64,000 nucleotides of DNA. It comes from Vulcanimicrobiota bacterium (GTDB lineage: Bacteria > Vulcanimicrobiota > Vulcanimicrobiia > Vulcanimicrobiales > Vulcanimicrobiaceae). The notes below the pieces were generated by a model. It was not told the DNA's origin. It ran no database searches and was given only the letters and a program-made list of their open reading frames with translations. The translations under genes and the position numbers were made by a program. Of the stretch, positions 53,643-60,162 are shown piece by piece (position 1 is the first letter of the stretch; each line of letters begins with the position of its first letter). The stretch is from contig CAWGBN010000007.1 of assembly GCA_963820825.1 (NCBI GenBank), forward strand, positions 224,001 through 288,000, given 5' to 3'.

Positions 53643-54428
53643 ATCAAACTCGCCGTCGCCCTGGTTGCCGTGTTTTTGTCGGTGGCCGGAACGGCTTCTG
53701 CCGACGTGCGGTACGCGACGTCCGGTGAAGACCTTTATCGCATTCAAGCCGCCGGTACGTTCTCGAAGGTTACCTACGCCGGCACCGAGCGGCTCGACGT
53801 TCAACCGCAGGGCAAGGCTTGGCGCTTTGAAGCGCGGGCCCGCTATACGCGCGATGGGCCCGATGGGAAGGAGCACGCCCAGGCGCGCTTCGTCCAGCTC
53901 CTCGCGCCCGACGGCACGTTCGAGGACCGCGTCGACGACGACCCCGACTTCCTAACGATTCTCAACCAGCCGTTTGCGGTGAAGCTCGACGCACCGACGC
54001 TGCACGACCTACGAGTCCTCCACGGAGCGGTTCCCTTTTCGGCGACTTCGCCGCTGGGAGCGCAGGCCGTGCTCCGCGGATACTTGCGCCCGGCGACCGG
54101 CGGACCGATCGACGGTCGCCCGTGCGTCGCCGTGCGCTTCGAAGCCGACGGCGCGATGACGGGCCCGCTCCCCGGATACGCCGAGATGCTCGTCTCGGGC
54201 ACCATGCGGATGGATGGAACGGCGTACTACGCACTCGACGATGCGATGCTCTTGGGTTTGAACGTCGCGCTGACGCTCGACGCGCGGCTGGCCGAAGGCC
54301 GGCCCGCGGTCTCGGTACCGGTGCGTATCGTTTACCGGCGTGCGATCAGAGCGACCGCGAGCGCTAAAACGCTCCCACCAACTCCACTTGCAAAGGGTGC
54401 CGGAACGGTTCCTCCCGCATCTCCGTAA
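53643..54428 (+). CDS. Hypothetical secreted beta-rich protein
   Basis: Signal peptide (I/M)KLAVALVAVFLSVAGTASA from ATC 53643 after GGAG; first canonical start is GTG 53670. Confidence 0.65.
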   Translation: MKLAVALVAVFLSVAGTASADVRYATSGEDLYRIQAAGTFSKVTYAGTERLDVQPQGKAWRFEARARYTRDGPDGKEHAQARFVQLLAPDGTFEDRVDDDPDFLTILNQPFAVKLDAPTLHDLRVLHGAVPFSATSPLGAQAVLRGYLRPATGGPIDGRPCVAVRFEADGAMTGPLPGYAEMLVSGTMRMDGTAYYALDDAMLLGLNVALTLDARLAEGRPAVSVPVRIVYRRAIRATASAKTLPPTPLAKGAGTVPPASP

Positions 54429-54756
54429 GCGGCGTGAATGCCAGGTGGTTCTGATGGCAGTCGATGAGCATCTCGATGCCGCGCTTGACGCACCCGGTCT
54501 CCTCGACGTATTTGGTGAGCTTCTTCTTGAAGTAAGCGCGCGGGTCGCGCAGCACTTTCGCGTAGTACGGGTCGTCGGTTAAACCCGCGGGATCGACGCC
54601 TTCTTTTGGAACCAGCCACACGAACCACGGATCCTCGCTCTGCCGGTAACCGATGAGTGCGAGCGGGATCGCTCGCGCGGACTTAATGTCCGGTAAAAAA
54701 CTACACATCGTGTAGGCATCTAGCGAGATCTCCGTAGGCTCGATCGCTTGCTGCAT
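54364..54756 (-). CDS. Hypothetical protein
   Basis: AAAGG RBS about 9 nt upstream of ATG 54756; MQQAIEPTEISLDAYTMCSFLPDIK...; no family recognised. Confidence 0.65.
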   Translation of the reverse strand: MQQAIEPTEISLDAYTMCSFLPDIKSARAIPLALIGYRQSEDPWFVWLVPKEGVDPAGLTDDPYYAKVLRDPRAYFKKKLTKYVEETGCVKRGIEMLIDCHQNHLAFTPLTEMREEPFRHPLQVELVGAF

Positions 54757-54788
54757 AGACCGCACCTTTCATTCCATCAGACGAGCGC

Positions 54789-54823
54789 AAAGAAAAACCG
54801 CTTGACTCTTACGAGCGAAGCGG
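54789..54823 (-). terminator. Intrinsic terminator in the leader of the 54756 gene
   Basis: Minus strand CCGCTT-CG-CTC-GTAA-GAG-TC-AAGCGG followed by TTTTTCTTT. Confidence 0.6.
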
Positions 54824-54912
54824 CTTCACGGTACCGGCGGGCGAGGGGCCCTGAGCGAGAGCGGCATGCCGACCGATTAGGAACCCCCGGCTAAACCCCT
54901 TCACCCCATTGG

Positions 54913-55023
54913 TGTCATCCTTGAGCGCAGCGAGCAAAGCGAGCGGAGTCGAGGGGCTGAGCGCAGCGCCGCCCTACTCTTTGTCATCCTGAGCGAAGCG
55001 CCCTAGGCGCGGAGTCGAAGGGC
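54913..55023 (+). repeat. Two tandem REP-like elements
   Basis: TGTCATCCTTGAGCGCAGCG...GCGGAGTCGAGGG (54913-54956) and TGTCATCCTGAGCGAAGCG...GCGGAGTCGAAGGG (54982-55022); AAGGATGACA remnant also at 18680-18689. Confidence 0.7.
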
Positions 55024-55110
55024 GAGGGCGAAGGGCAAAGGAGCGCGGGCGGGGAGTTTTTTGGGAGAGCGTGAAACCTCGGCCCGAGCAGTGGTGGTCC
55101 GGTGCACTGT

Positions 55111-55779
55111 ATGAGCGCGCTCGCACCACTCCTTACGGGAGTACACGTGCCAACAGCGACGACGCCCGGGCGGACCGCGGCGACGCGGGCCCCGGCCGAT
55201 TCCACACCGAGCGTAGCGAACTTCGACCGGATCGTCGACGATTACCAGCGCCGCCTCTACGGTTTCGCGCTGCGAATGACCGGAAATCGCGAGGACGCCG
55301 AAGAGATCGTGCAGGACGCCTTCGTGCGCGCCTACCGCGCGCTTGGAAAGATGTCCGCGGAACAACGGGTCGACCTCCGTCTGCAGCCCTGGCTCTATAC
55401 CATCACGTTGAACGTGACGCGTAACCGCTTGCGGACCAAGCGGCCGTCGAACGTGGCGCTCGACGCTCTGGCCGACCCCGACGCGCTCCTGCGCGAATCG
55501 CACGAAGGCCCGCCGCAACCCGAGGCGATCGTCGAACAGAATACCGAGATCGCGCTGGTCGAGCGAGCGCTTCTTCAGCTTCCGATGCACCTTCGAGCCG
55601 CAGCAACGCTGCGATTCATCGAAGGGCGCAGTCATCCGGAGATTGCCGAGATTCTCAACCAACCGATCGGCACGGTTAAGTCCCACGTCCATCGAGCCGT
55701 GCGCATTCTGCGGCGCATTCTCGGCCCCCAAATCGGACGTTTTGCCCCCGAAGGAGTCCCCCAACATGCGTTGTCGTGA
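55111..55779 (+). CDS. ECF-type RNA polymerase sigma factor
   Basis: Region 2 (LYGFALRMTGNREDAEEIVQDAFVRAY..PWLYTITLN) and region 4 (LP..R...LRFIEGRSHPEIAEILNQPIGTVKSHVHRA). Confidence 0.93.
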   Translation: MSALAPLLTGVHVPTATTPGRTAATRAPADSTPSVANFDRIVDDYQRRLYGFALRMTGNREDAEEIVQDAFVRAYRALGKMSAEQRVDLRLQPWLYTITLNVTRNRLRTKRPSNVALDALADPDALLRESHEGPPQPEAIVEQNTEIALVERALLQLPMHLRAAATLRFIEGRSHPEIAEILNQPIGTVKSHVHRAVRILRRILGPQIGRFAPEGVPQHALS

Positions 55780-56494
55780 CGTCGAGGCGCTCTGGGACGA
55801 GCTTCGTGGCGAGTGCCAAGCCTCGCTCAAGGAGACCGTTCACAGCCACCTGCGCGCGTGCCCATCTTGCCAAGTGATGTACGAGCAATACGAAGGCGTC
55901 GCATACTGCCTCTCGTCGCTGCCGCGTCCCGAGCCGTCGTGCGATCTCGCAAAGAAGGTCGTCCATCACATCGCCGCCCAGAAGGGCCGGGCCTATCCAA
56001 TCGCGCTCGCCGCGCTCACCACGCCGATCGGGCAGCTCTACGTCGGCTTCAAGTGCGACCGCATCGCATATCTGAGCCTCGACACCGGCGAATCGCTCAA
56101 CGAGGTGATCGCACGAGCCGAGCGCCGGCTGCACCGGCGCGTCGTGGAAGGCGAGGCCCCGGCTTGGGTCGTGCGTGCGCTCGATCGTTTCTTCAACACC
56201 TGGACCCTCGAGGACGCGCTGCTCGACATCAGCGATCTCACGCCGTTCGAGCAGGCCGCGCTTCGCGCGGCGGCGCGCATTCCGCCCGGAGAGGTGCGCT
56301 CCTATGCGTGGGTTGCAACGCAGATCGGACGGCCAAACGCCGCGCGCGCCGTCGGCCGCGTCATGGCGCGCAATCCGCTTCCGCTACTCTTTCCGTGCCA
56401 CCGCGTCGTCGATTCGTCGGGCGATCTGCACGATTATTATTACGGAGTCGAGATGAAAGCTCGTCTTCTCCAGATGGAGGGCTACCGGGGCTAG
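55766..56494 (+). CDS. Zinc-binding anti-sigma (ZAS/zf-HC2) domain fused to O6-methylguanine-DNA methyltransferase (Ogt/MGMT)
   Basis: AAGGAG RBS; N-terminal MRC...HLRACPSC (Hx3Cx2C); TPIG; C-terminal IPPGEVRSY, AARAVG, NPLP...PCHRVV, K..LL..E. Confidence 0.9.
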   Translation: MRCRDVEALWDELRGECQASLKETVHSHLRACPSCQVMYEQYEGVAYCLSSLPRPEPSCDLAKKVVHHIAAQKGRAYPIALAALTTPIGQLYVGFKCDRIAYLSLDTGESLNEVIARAERRLHRRVVEGEAPAWVVRALDRFFNTWTLEDALLDISDLTPFEQAALRAAARIPPGEVRSYAWVATQIGRPNAARAVGRVMARNPLPLLFPCHRVVDSSGDLHDYYYGVEMKARLLQMEGYRG

Positions 56495-56512
56495 ACGCCA
56501 ACCTTAGCGAAG

Positions 56513-58087
56513 GTGGCGAATCTGGATCCTAGAATCGCGGCCATTCCCGACGTGCACGGCCATGCCAAGGGCGAGCACCGGCCGTACACCGAGGAACGAC
56601 CGATCGCGTACTCGGCGCGAATGCTCTTTCTTTGGTTCTACCACGCCTGCCGCCGCGACTCGCCGCGGTTCCTCATGGTCGCCGACCATGCGAACTACCT
56701 AACCTTCGAAGACCCCGGTGCCGTCAATACGGTCCGCCGCGCGCTGAACCTCGCGCAAGCCGGCGACCTGCTCGGCGCGGCCGAGACCGCCGGCGTCGAC
56801 ATCGGGCACGCGGCGGTCGTCTCCGAAGGGCTGCGCCGGGGCATGCGTTTCTCGATCGGCGCGGAGATGGATAACGACCCGCGCGCCCGCCCCGACGCGC
56901 AGAACATCATCGATGCGTTGCGCCCCGACGGAATCATCCGCTCGGTGCACTTCGTCCCCATCCAGCATCCCGAGAAGGGAGCCGATTGGCTCTGGCCCTT
57001 CGACAACGAGGAGTTCAGCGGGCTCTCCGAGATCGTCGGGACGGAGAAGCTCTGGGAACTCTACATAACCCGGCTGCTCGACGATCTCGAAAAACTGCCG
57101 GCGCACGTCGTCGGCCATTTTTACGTGCCGGCCGTCTTCGGGCGCTGGCCCGCCCAGAAGAAGCTCGAAGAGTACGAAGACCGCATGCTCGACGTGGCGC
57201 ACCGCCGCGGCCTGGCCGTCGAGGTCAACACGCGCTTCCTCTATCGCGATCATCCCGAGGAGCGGGTGAAGAAATACCTCGAGGCCAACGCGCGCCTCGT
57301 TCGCAAAGCGAAGGCGCGCGGCGTCGGAATAGCGATCGGCTCCGACGCGCATAGCCCGAAGGATCAGGGCAACGGCTTTGACGTCATCCTCAAGCTCCTC
57401 GACGACGCGCGAATCAACGAAGTCGTCTTCCCCGTCGCAGGGCGTTTAGCGCGCGTGGCGCTGCGCGCAACCCGCGAGCATCTCGAAGCGGAGGCGCAAG
57501 CCCGACGCCAGTCGAGCGCTCCGGGAAGCAGCATCACCGGCTATAGCCGCGCCGAGCTGGGACTTCCCGAAGAGGCCGAGGCCGCGGCGCGCGCCGGCGG
57601 CCGTGCAACGCGTGAGGCCGGGCCGAAGAAACGGGCCAGCGATTCGTCCCGCCCCTCGAAACGCACCGGAGCGGCTGCGCCGCCGAGCGCGAGCACCTCG
57701 CGCCGTAGCGCCGATTCGTCTTCGTCCGCCTCAAAAGCGAAGGCGGCCCGCGTCGCGAAGCCCGCACCCGCGCCGAAGAAGAAAAAGCCGGCGGTGAAAG
57801 CGCCCGCAACTCGCCCAGTCGCGGCGAAGAAATCGTCGCCGAAACGCGAGCCGGTGCGCAAGAAGACGGCGGCTGCGAAGAAACCGCCGATCAAGAAGCC
57901 GGTCGCCAAGAAGCCCGCGACCAAAAAACCCGCGGTCAAGAAGGCTTCGGCCAAGAAACCGCCGGCAGCGAAGAAAGCCGCCGCCAAGAAGCCGGCGGCG
58001 CGCAAGGCTCCAACGGCGCTACGGCCTAAAGCCGGGTACGCGAAGAAGAGCGTCAAAAAGAAGAAACCCGCGGCGAAGCGCCGCTAG
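56513..58087 (+). CDS. PHP-domain phosphoesterase (HisJ/PolX-PHP-like) with histone H1-like Lys/Ala/Pro-rich C-terminal tail
   Basis: DVHGH, DHAN, GAEMD, SVH, GHF, EVNT and GSDAH metal motifs; tail with repeated KKP(A/V)(A/V)KK. Confidence 0.8.
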
Positions 58088-58116
58088 CAACCATTTTCTC
58101 TATAGGGGACAAGGCA

Positions 58117-60162
58117 TTGGCGGATATCGAGCGCCTCAGGAATATCGCTTTCGTCGGACCGCACCACGCGGGGAAGACGACCCTCGTCGAGGCGATCCTC
58201 GCTCACACCGGAGCGATCAGTCGACGCGGCTCGATCGCCGATGGGACGACCGTCACGGATCACGAGCCCGAGGATACTGCTCATCTGCAATCCACGACCG
58301 TCGGCCTCGCCCACACCGCCGACGAAGGCATCGACATCACGATCGTAGACGCACCCGGCTTCGTCGATTTCTTCGAAGAGACGAAACAGGCACTGGCCGG
58401 CGTCGATGCGGCCGTCGTCGTTATCGAGGCCGATCCGGGCCGAATCGTTCAAACGCAAGCGATCCTCGACCATCTCGAATCGATGCAGATGCCGCACATC
58501 TTCGTCGTCAACAAGATGGATCGGCCCGGAGCCGATTTCGCGGGCACGCTTGCGGCATTGCAGAACGCGTACGGGCGGCACGTCGTTGCCGAACAACTGC
58601 CGCTCGGCAGCGCCGAGCATTTCAGCGGCTACGTCGATCTCGCAAAAATGACGGCCTTCAGATTCGCCCCGGAGTCGGGCGGCGACAAGGAAGAAGCAAC
58701 TCCCGCCGAGGCGACCGCGCAAGCGCAGCAGCTGCACGTCGAGCTGCTCGAGGCGATGGCCGATTTCGACGACCACCTGATGGAAGAGTTGCTCGAGGGC
58801 GTCGAACCGCCGTTTGAAGAGATCGAGCGCGACCTCTGCAGCGAGTGCTCGCACGATCAAGTCGTTCCGGTACTGGTCGCGGCAGGCGCGTCGGGAGCCG
58901 GAGTCGCGGCGCTCGTGCGCGCGATCGAGAAATGGTTTCCCTCGCCCGCGGATGCGCCGTTCACCGATGCGGAGGGGCGTCCGATCGCGCCCGACCCGAG
59001 CGCGCCGGTCATTGCCCGCATCATCAAGACGGCGATCCATCCGCAGAGTGGAAAGCTCTCGATTGCGCGCGTGCTCTCCGGAACGATCAAAGCCGACGCG
59101 ACGCTGACCAACGTCAGCAAGCGCGACGAGAAGGTCCGGCTCGGCGGCCTCTATCGGCTTCAAGGCAAGAAACAGGAGGCGATTGCCGAGGCGGGACCCG
59201 GAACGATCGTCGCGCTGGCGCGCCTCGACTCGGTATCCACCGGTGACACGCTTACCTCGAACGGTCATAAGGTGCTGCTCCCCCGCGTCCCGGTTGCGGA
59301 ACCGGTCTTCGCCGTTGCAATCAAACCGAAGGAGCGCATCGACGAGGCCAAGATCTCGACGATGCTCGCCCGCATCGTCGACGAGGATCCGGCGCTTCGG
59401 CTCGGCCGCGCCGACGTAACGCACGAGCTGCTCTTACTCGGCTGCGGCGAACAGCACGTCGCCATCGCCGTCGAGCGTCTGGCCCGCAAGTATAAGGTCG
59501 AAGTCGAAACGGCCGCCCCGACGATCCCCTACCAGGAGACGATCACCGGCGGAACCGAGATACACTCGCGCTACAAGCACCAGACCGGCGGCCACGGCCA
59601 ATTCGGCGACGTGTGGCTTCGATTCGAACCGCGCGAACGCGGCGCCGGCGTCACCTTCGAGGAGAAGATCGTCGGCGGCGTCGTCCCGCGTCAGTTCATC
59701 CCCGCGGTCGAGAAAGGCGTGCGCGAAGCGTTGCTGCACGGCGCGAGCGGTTACCCCGTCACCGATCTGCACGTAACGCTCTTCGACGGCCAGTACCACG
59801 ACGTCGATTCCAGCGAGATGTCGTTTAAAACGGCGGCCGGCATGGGCGTACGCGAAGCGCTTCCGAAATGCAATCCGGTCGTGCTCGAACCGATCGCGCA
59901 CGTGACGGTGACGGTTCCGACCATCCACACCTCGACGGTCATTCAGCAGCTCACCGGCAAGCGCGGTCAGATCCTCGGCATGAACCCGGCCGATAATCGC
60001 ACGGGCGTCGACGTCGTGGAAGCCTACGTTCCCGCCGTCGAGCTCTCGCGCTACATCACCGAGCTTCGCACCGCAACGCAAGGTCTCGGCACCTACAGCT
60101 GGCGCCACGAGCGCTACGACCCGGTACCCGGCAACAGAGTCGCACCGAAAGCCGCCGTGTGA
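58117..60162 (+). CDS. Elongation factor G paralogue (EF-G2/FusA2-type)
   Basis: RNIAFVGPHHAGKTTL, DAPG, NKMD, domains II-V (HQTGGHGQFG, YHDVDSSE, LEPI); degenerate switch I; stand-alone location. Confidence 0.92.
   Translation: MADIERLRNIAFVGPHHAGKTTLVEAILAHTGAISRRGSIADGTTVTDHEPEDTAHLQSTTVGLAHTADEGIDITIVDAPGFVDFFEETKQALAGVDAAVVVIEADPGRIVQTQAILDHLESMQMPHIFVVNKMDRPGADFAGTLAALQNAYGRHVVAEQLPLGSAEHFSGYVDLAKMTAFRFAPESGGDKEEATPAEATAQAQQLHVELLEAMADFDDHLMEELLEGVEPPFEEIERDLCSECSHDQVVPVLVAAGASGAGVAALVRAIEKWFPSPADAPFTDAEGRPIAPDPSAPVIARIIKTAIHPQSGKLSIARVLSGTIKADATLTNVSKRDEKVRLGGLYRLQGKKQEAIAEAGPGTIVALARLDSVSTGDTLTSNGHKVLLPRVPVAEPVFAVAIKPKERIDEAKISTMLARIVDEDPALRLGRADVTHELLLLGCGEQHVAIAVERLARKYKVEVETAAPTIPYQETITGGTEIHSRYKHQTGGHGQFGDVWLRFEPRERGAGVTFEEKIVGGVVPRQFIPAVEKGVREALLHGASGYPVTDLHVTLFDGQYHDVDSSEMSFKTAAGMGVREALPKCNPVVLEPIAHVTVTVPTIHTSTVIQQLTGKRGQILGMNPADNRTGVDVVEAYVPAVELSRYITELRTATQGLGTYSWRHERYDPVPGNRVAPKAAV

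Follow-up and report, generated by a model that had tools for sequence, protein, structure and literature searches.

An ECF sigma factor gene translationally coupled to a predicted anti-sigma domain-alkyltransferase fusion in a Vulcanimicrobiota genome: a candidate consumable anti-sigma factor

Within a stretch of 64,000 nucleotides from a Vulcanimicrobiota bacterium (assembly GCA_963820825.1, contig CAWGBN010000007.1, positions 224,001 to 288,000; hereafter the window, to which all coordinates refer), a gene for an extracytoplasmic function (ECF) sigma factor was found to overlap with a gene whose 242-aa product joins a predicted class-I zinc anti-sigma (ZAS) domain to a complete O6-alkylguanine-DNA alkyltransferase of the MGMT family (Table 1). 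This fusion is considered very likely to bind the sigma factor encoded next to it. Furthermore, we lean, slightly, towards the interpretation that it represents a consumable anti-sigma factor, in which alkylation of the active-site residue Cys211 would destabilise the fusion and free the sigma factor, which would then drive its own promoter.

The fusion protein carries the motif MRC...HLRACPSC (C3, H28, C32, and C35) at its N-terminus, followed by AARAVG and the active-site motif PCHRVV containing Cys211. All of these elements, as well as the 14-nt overlap with the sigma gene (55766-55779), had been reported in a preliminary description prepared from the sequence alone, and were found as described. 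The four residues C3, H28, C32, and C35 were invariant in 53 out of 53 aligned sequences and are predicted to bind zinc. Since no 19-residue Kyte-Doolittle window of the fusion exceeded 1.2, the protein is considered soluble, in agreement with the earlier statement that a transmembrane segment is missing. The C-terminal half was recognized by Pfam DNA_binding_1 (PF01035; residues 160-239, E 2.9e-28, 97.9 bits compared to a cut-off of 27) and by the NCBIfam model ogt (TIGR00589; 89.6 bits, cut-off 46.4), and the residues C211, H212, R213, R194, N203, Y180, and E238 were invariant or nearly so in the alignment. Alignment with human AGT (residues 172-241 corresponding to 106-175) paired Y180 with Y114, R194 with R128, N203 with N137, C211 with C145, H212 with H146, Y224 with Y158, K231 with K165, and E238 with E172, so that the catalytic set is complete; these residues also line up with those of Mycobacterium tuberculosis Ogt. 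The earlier assignment of an intact alkyltransferase is thus borne out in silico. Two further NCBIfam models, one for an anti-sigma factor and TIGR03988 for RsrA (E 0.0022), were matched weakly, and the Pfam scan of the fusion revealed neither Ada_Zn_binding (PF02805) nor an AraC-type helix-turn-helix. By the features tested, the fusion belongs to both the ZAS anti-sigma and the MGMT families.

Table 1. Features of the sigma-alkyltransferase locus, in window coordinates.
Feature	Coordinates	Strand	Details
Candidate autoregulated ECF promoter	55071..55100	+	-35 GTGAAACC 55071-55078, 14-nt spacer, -10-like GGTGGTCC 55093-55100
ECF sigma gene	55111..55779	+	222 aa from ATG 55111; Sigma70_r2, Sigma70_r4_2, TIGR02937
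Shine-Dalgarno sequence GAAGGAG for the fusion gene	55750..55756	+	within the 3' end of the sigma gene; read from the sequence
Fusion gene	55766..56494	+	ATG 55766
Predicted class-I zinc anti-sigma domain (ZAS)	55766..55993	+	residues 1-76; putative zinc ligands C3, H28, C32, C35
Two-domain O6-alkylguanine-DNA alkyltransferase and stop	55994..56494	+	residues 77-242; Cys211 codon 56396-56398
PHP-family histidinol-phosphatase-like gene	56513..58087	+	524 aa; possibly co-transcribed

The upstream gene encodes an ECF sigma factor with sigma70 regions 2 and 4 only. Pfam located Sigma70_r2 at residues 42-111 (E 1.2e-15) and Sigma70_r4_2 at residues 149-198 (E 2.6e-13), and the protein passes as an ECF sigma with the model TIGR02937 (sigma70-ECF; 95.6 bits, cut-off 42.9). 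SigW was the top NCBIfam name, with a score under the cut-off of that model. Regions 2 and 4 were near-invariant among 20 orthologues. The protein ends with QHALS* (stop codon TGA at 55777-55779), and an in-frame GTG is located at 55102, upstream of the ATG at 55111. An N-terminal extension of approximately 35 residues precedes region 2 (55111-55215, MSALAPLLTGV...), its first approximately 12 residues being kept family-wide, including the distant locus L155.

To characterize the fold of the two halves, a structure of the fusion was predicted with AlphaFold2 from a 53-sequence alignment (mean predicted local distance difference test score, pLDDT, 90.5). In the model, four N-terminal helices (residues 3-14, 19-31, 33-50, and 61-73) precede an alkyltransferase of two domains. 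Comparison of this model with 48,161 PDB representatives by means of VIA-align matched residues 77-242 to the C-terminal part of Ada (1sfe, Z 20.6, with 161 residues aligned to residues 12-176 of 1sfe), M. tuberculosis Ogt (4bhb, Z 18.9), and human AGT (1eh6, Z 16.6). Because residues 77-242 already span the whole enzyme, residues 1-76 represent an addition and not a zinc site of the enzyme itself. For residues 2-71, six anti-sigma structures ranked among the top 34 of the 48,161 chains, namely RsiW (Z 6.7, 69 residues aligned), PupR (6.6), MucA (6.1), RslA (5.2), RskA (4.8), and RseA (4.2). In agreement with this, a profile of the N-terminal domain searched against all PDB sequences retrieved RsiW first (E 8.6e-4), followed by RslA (E 0.016). 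The N-terminal domain is accordingly predicted to adopt the class-I zinc anti-sigma fold.

The sigma factor (20-sequence alignment) was also modelled together with residues 1-80 of the fusion (22-sequence alignment), alongside three controls. The interface score ipSAE reached 0.79, 0.80, and 0.79, whereas the best control scored 0.00; the mark applied had been attained by 116 out of 157 solved complexes and by only 2 out of 215 mismatched pairs. The runs had at least 76% of their contacts in common, and the pLDDT values of the partners were at least 79. In the model, the domain is placed between sigma regions 2 and 4, which is the sandwich arrangement known for class-I anti-sigma domains. On the sigma side, the predicted interface involves residues 38-76 (region 2) and 146-209 (region 4), and on the anti-sigma side residues 7-12, 41-58, and 61-72, with most contacts lying in 41-72. 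Since complexes of this kind have already been solved, the favourable score may reflect likeness only and not binding by this particular copy. The proposal made beforehand, which regards the N-terminal domain as the anti-sigma factor of the adjacent sigma, is nevertheless supported in silico by fold, RsiW/RslA profile, complex model, and gene pairing.

The pairing was then followed to more distant organisms. Among 1.84 billion cluster representatives searched, full-length relatives with 33-49% identity were recovered, of which 22 were aligned. The residues C3, H28, C32, and C35 as well as PCHR were at least 90% conserved in this set. DNA_binding_1 was recognized in 21 and zf-HC2 at E <= 0.01 in 12 of the 22 sequences (best E 5.5e-8), and a C-terminal Ada_Zn_binding domain was detected in 12, which strengthens the link to alkylation sensing drawn in the preliminary description. 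Named members of this set belong to Chloroflexota, 'bacterium HR23', and Vulcanimicrobiaceae, and similar clusters in the ESM Atlas were assigned to Vulcanimicrobiota, Chloroflexota, Acidobacteriota, and Methylomirabilota.

Furthermore, comparison of an alignment of the triple fusion (ZAS-MGMT-AdaZn) with metagenomes yielded 80 loci with 33-56% identity. PCHR was present in all and the Ada zinc motifs in most of them, and the ZAS motif was found in just five (L124, L136, L144, L151, and L155). For 57 of these loci the available upstream DNA comprised 700 nt or more, and in 55 of these a same-strand ECF sigma open reading frame (ORF) is located directly 5' of the enzyme gene, L126 and L142 being the exceptions. 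The two genes share a 4-nt start/stop overlap in 40 of the 59 sigma-adjacent loci. The neighbourhood survey suggested at the outset gave ECF adjacency both in these 55 metagenome loci and in all 80 genome loci described below. In forms lacking the ZAS motif, the N-terminus is extended by 17-50 residues showing the pattern L..L....AP..L...VL...GL.D.Y. Within the anti-sigma domain, this extension corresponds by alignment to the last part of helix 3, the loop, and helix 4 (helix 3C-loop-helix 4), that is, to the segment bearing most of the modelled sigma contacts. Three architectures can be distinguished in total: ZAS-MGMT, ZAS-MGMT-AdaZn, and helix 3C/4-MGMT-AdaZn.

A separate anti-sigma gene was also looked for. 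Within the limited sensitivity of the approach, the anti-sigma domain profile matched only the five ZAS-bearing fusion proteins in the 80 metagenome loci, and, with the same restriction, no anti-sigma Pfam family was recognized in 139 of 196 flanking ORFs, covering 13 of 17 chosen loci (all except L098, L112, L119, and L155). Flanking genes differ between the metagenome loci. Variable flanks and the missing anti-sigma family together indicate that the conserved unit consists of the sigma factor and an alkyltransferase with a sigma-binding segment. Judged from these comparisons, the sigma-enzyme pairing is old, and two modules, the zinc bundle and the Ada-type zinc domain, are optional.

Several neighbours of individual metagenome loci were recorded in addition. 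A second, divergently transcribed ECF sigma gene is located just 5' of the sigma-MGMT-AdaZn pair in L096, L102, L103, L106, L116, and L122. Directly 3' of the ZAS-MGMT-AdaZn gene, a gene for a SpoIIE/PP2C-type phosphatase occurs in two loci (L124:3944-4663 and L136:3408-4118), and L143 features a 3-methyladenine glycosylase (Tag) gene 3' of its MGMT-AdaZn gene.

Among closer relatives, a word-indexed search returned 2139 homologues, the best 120 of which were 74-91% identical, nearly all 242-244 aa long, and annotated merely as MGMT. They originate from metagenome-assembled genomes (MAGs) of Eremiobacterota (Vulcanimicrobiota, Baltobacteraceae, and 'Candidatus Cybelea'). The motifs MxC..HxxxCxxC, PCHR, and A[AS]RAVG and the identical 14-nt sigma overlap were found in all 80 species-level genome loci, which excludes an assembly artefact or a chance fusion. 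When the N-terminal 80 residues were used as a profile, each of the 71 genomes sampled from the window's family gave a match at E <= 4e-19, as did the one genome sampled from a sister family; other families of the phylum gave weak, generic ZAS matches only. Occurrence in every sampled genome of the family indicates that the gene is core to this lineage.

Upstream of the sigma gene, a conserved promoter-like element was identified. The blocks GTGAAACC and GGTGGTCC were kept in 25 out of 26 aligned sigma-upstream regions, mostly with a spacer of 14 nt and with variable flanks. The TGAAAC-N16 geometry resembles that of sigma-W-type promoters. The element stops 10 nt short of the sigma ATG, so that the transcript leader would be very short or absent (near-leaderless). 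As the second block could be a distant Shine-Dalgarno-like element instead of a -10 element, the site is termed only a candidate autoregulated promoter. A search of the locus revealed no sigma-70-type promoter, and no terminator-like site was found between the sigma, fusion, and PHP genes.

Two further features were observed in this upstream region. A T-rich block, AGGAGTTTT, lies 5' of the -35 element at approximately 55040-55060 (near -50). Most of the orthologous loci possess this block, which may represent an UP element or the site of a regulator. Between the divergent upstream gene and the sigma promoter, a short dispersed repeat occurs in two copies (54915-55030) with the core GTCATCCTGAGCG ... 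AGTCGAAGG. Its 13-mer is present 32 times in the 2.98-Mb genome, and the repeat therefore looks REP- or MITE-like, that is, similar to repetitive extragenic palindromes or miniature inverted-repeat transposable elements. It was found at the same place in some orthologous loci (L001, L002, and L017), other loci being devoid of it. Rfam gave no match (E <= 0.1) for the repeat region or elsewhere in 54300-58200.

The genome was also searched for additional sites of the same type. The strict motif GTGAAAC[CT]-N13-17-GTGGT has a single occurrence, which is the sigma-fusion operon's own site, and the operon's own element likewise achieved the top position weight matrix (PWM) score (28.2, the runner-up scoring 23.8). 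The next PWM matches (23.8, 21.6, and 20.9) are located within long ORFs with no gene start downstream and were rejected as regulon promoters for this reason. By strict motif and PWM, no wider alkylation regulon was thus found in the genome. The preliminary description had expected the released sigma to switch on such a regulon; this part of it was not upheld, the operon's candidate promoter being the sole conserved element of the ECF promoter type in the genome.

Taken together, these data allow a mechanism to be proposed. The fusion would be a soluble class-I zinc anti-sigma factor with a competent single-use alkyltransferase as its sensor and output domain, and its synthesis would be translationally coupled to that of the cognate ECF sigma. 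Helices 1, 3, and 4 of the anti-sigma domain would wedge between sigma regions 2 and 4 and hold the sigma inactive. Repair of an alkylated base would place the alkyl group irreversibly on Cys211 and thereby disturb the interface between the N- and C-domains of the alkyltransferase, the N-domain beginning only five residues past anti-sigma helix 4. For SsOGT and human AGT, published work likewise showed that alkylation perturbs the connection of the N-terminal domain with the C-terminal one, unfolding and degradation being the consequence (PMC4605297). In the same way, the alkylated fusion would unfold or be degraded and would release the sigma, which could then use the TGAAAC-N16-GTGG promoter to transcribe the operon encoding it and provide fresh sigma and alkyltransferase. 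The net effect would be that a suicide enzyme is resupplied in proportion to demand, corresponding to the logic of Ada built from sigma/anti-sigma parts.

Several observations weigh against this interpretation, or against parts of it. The fold Z-scores of 4.2-6.7 are each middling for helical domains, and the structural support rests on the enrichment of anti-sigma structures for this reason. Foldseek, applied to the isolated N-terminal model, returned nothing at E <= 0.001, the top hit being RsiW at E 0.33 and rank five being occupied by ChrR (2z2s_D). The Pfam scan proposed in the preliminary description came out only in part, because DNA_binding_1 was recognized and zf-HC2 (PF13490; residues 6-36, E 0.0028) stayed with 18.2 bits under its cut-off of 22.2. 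The whole block is syntenic within the family, so that the 80 genome loci do not count as independent evidence. Of the 41 family genomes sampled, only 11 contained the strict promoter motif (a count which takes in the unpublished genomes G019 and G021), usually once per genome, and this motif is not conserved 5' of the sigma genes of distant relatives, where GAAAC was seen in 10 out of 43 cases and the strict motif fared likewise. Conservation of Cys211 would equally be expected if the enzyme were mere cargo. Moreover, the window's own genome (2.98 Mb, 85% complete) encodes three further MGMT-domain genes (L082 at C6:93685-94548 on the minus strand, L084, and L081), comprising an AraC-HTH-MGMT fusion without Ada zinc domain (287 aa; HTH, helix-turn-helix), an ATL-like copy (180 aa) in which PAHRVI replaces PCHR, and a plain Ogt (188 aa), and the sigma-linked fusion is consequently not the sole repair route. 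AlkB is also encoded there, and the Ada zinc domain was not detected at this 85% level of completeness.

The main rival to the consumable anti-sigma factor, which we consider unlikely, holds that the protein is an anti-sigma factor of the RsrA type with its zinc-thiolate site as the sensor. Oxidants and electrophiles, including those causing SN2 S-alkylation, would expel the zinc and free the sigma, and the alkyltransferase would be cargo or output. Zinc-thiolates are good nucleophiles, as exemplified by Cys38 of Ada, and the invariance of the four ligands, the weak match to the RsrA model, and the additional cysteines in the close family (C17, C48, and C59 in 35, and C51 in 26 of the 53 sequences) are all in line with such a sensor. 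However, most sigma-linked relatives lack helices 1-2 together with the zinc site and retain both the enzyme and the coupling, indicating that the conserved partner of the sigma is the enzyme and not the zinc finger; in addition, the Ada zinc domain added in relatives points to the sensing of DNA alkylation. Direct alkylation of the ZAS thiolates, which had been put forward as an alternative trigger in the preliminary description, does not hold as a general one, because the zinc site is missing from most sigma-linked relatives. As a second input, the zinc-thiolate site may still contribute in the present lineage with its invariant ligands.

The other two readings are less likely. According to one of them, which appears improbable, no sensing takes place: the anti-sigma domain would buffer or titrate the sigma 1:1 or tether it near DNA, the operon would be controlled elsewhere, and the enzyme would simply be expressed from an operon that depends on the ECF sigma. 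Such a view is in accordance with the result that no regulon past the operon was found, with the other alkyltransferase paralogues in the genome, and with the description of the catalogued sigma groups ECF122 and ECF203 without an assigned regulator. It does not account well for a covalent fusion between a sigma-binding segment and the enzyme which recurs over several phyla in three architectures, nor for the near-universal start/stop overlap, whose explanation would be difficult unless the state of the enzyme and the sigma were functionally linked, and no other conserved neighbour is available to act as the regulator. Finally, the N-domain of human AGT contains a structural zinc site and zf-HC2 remained under the Pfam cut-off here, but that residues 1-76 are a structural zinc module of this kind with the sigma adjacency being incidental is very improbable, given that the two-domain enzyme is already complete without them (1sfe, Z 20.6), that their top fold and profile matches are anti-sigma factors, that the complex model passes its controls, and that the sigma is adjacent in 55 of 57 distant loci.

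Compared to known anti-sigma factors, the fusion shows both familiar and divergent properties. ChrR of Rhodobacter sphaeroides and RsrA of Streptomyces are cytoplasmic HxxxCxxC ZAS anti-sigma factors encoded beside their ECF sigmas (sigmaE and sigmaR, respectively); ChrR features a C-terminal cupin sensor and responds to singlet oxygen, and RsrA, which has no added domain, responds to disulfide stress. The fusion shares with them the soluble ZAS domain beside an ECF sigma, and with ChrR also the combination of ZAS and a C-terminal sensor domain. It differs in that its C-terminal domain is a DNA-repair suicide enzyme and that the proposed signal is covalent self-alkylation. RsiW of the RsiW-sigmaW pair of Bacillus subtilis (5wuq) was the best structural and profile match of residues 2-71, and the TGAAAC -35 of the candidate promoter with its spacing is similar to the sigma-W consensus. 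RsiW is a membrane protein released via regulated proteolysis, whereas the fusion is devoid of a transmembrane segment.

With respect to alkyltransferases, the closest functional counterpart is Ada of Escherichia coli, likewise a suicide methyltransferase whose own methylation induces the genes for its replacement. Its C-terminal part was the top fold match, and its zinc domain reappears in distant relatives of the fusion. The fusion itself possesses neither Ada_Zn_binding nor the AraC helix-turn-helix, and its proposed output is the release of a sigma factor in contrast to direct promoter binding. As proposed here, the fusion works like Ada and is not a member of the Ada family. Human AGT and SsOGT share the two-domain fold and the active-site network, and the destabilisation model published for them, as given in PMC4605297, supplies the proposed release step; their degradation is without a known sigma-linked regulatory output.

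Adjacency of ECF sigma and MGMT genes as such has been described before. In their group entries, Casas-Pastor et al. 2021 (PMC7826278 supplement) list it for ECF122 and ECF203, each described as 100% Actinobacteria and as having 'no putative AS factors'; contexts of ECF203 comprise MGMT, Ada_Zn_binding, and TetR, and the promoter given for ECF122 is CTCAC (-35) / CGTCTAC (-10). A 2022 review places the ECF122 enzyme among possibly regulatory neighbours (PMC8999054). The caution expressed in the preliminary description, that the architecture might already be catalogued, was therefore justified as far as the adjacency is concerned, the MGMT not being recognized as an anti-sigma factor in these entries. 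Here too, the MGMT gene occupies position +1. The present system differs in its origin from MAGs of an Eremiobacterota (Vulcanimicrobiota) lineage, in a methyltransferase that itself carries a recognizable anti-sigma domain, and, compared to ECF122, in the element GTGAAACC-N14-GGTGGTCC (TGAAAC / GTGGTC), this comparison being based on gene context, promoter, and taxon as published in the entries. Relative to them, what is new is the MGMT carrying a recognizable anti-sigma domain. A literature search retrieved no paper naming or testing the enzyme as an anti-sigma factor, and the main text of PMC7406223 does not mention methylguanine, methyltransferase, MGMT, or PF01035.

ECF sigma factors are one of the major signalling routes in bacteria, and no regulator is known for several of the catalogued groups, ECF122 and ECF203 among them. 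Should the alkyltransferase encoded next to the sigma be the anti-sigma factor, these orphan groups would be explained. If the consumable anti-sigma mechanism is true, it would constitute a second, independent adaptive response to alkylation beside Ada and a new sensing principle in which the inhibitor is spent by the damage repaired; such a signalling principle is so far not known to have been demonstrated for any sigma/anti-sigma pair. It is conceivable, and advanced here only tentatively, that a class of consumable anti-sigma factors extends over Eremiobacterota, Chloroflexota, Acidobacteriota, and Methylomirabilota, in which each repair event would irreversibly destroy one inhibitor and free one sigma, resulting in a stoichiometric count of lesions and exact resynthesis. 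The system is compact, consisting of two genes and one promoter, and could possibly serve as an orthogonal, chemically triggered switch. It is also directly testable, because O6-benzylguanine alkylates the active-site cysteine only. In addition, the pair belongs to the core genes of an uncultivated lineage from soil and peat.

Downstream of the fusion gene, 18 nt past its stop codon, the PHP-like gene begins, and it may be part of the sigma-fusion operon. Its PHP Pfam score of 19.9 bits was under the cut-off, and the histidinol phosphatase of Thermus thermophilus (2yxo) was matched at E 1.1e-10. The gene was found downstream in 77 of the 80 genome loci, with a gap ranging from approximately 20 to approximately 1000 nt, the spacing not being conserved. 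The encoded protein ends in a C-terminal tail of approximately 130 aa, which is rich in Lys, Ala, and Pro and resembles histone H1.

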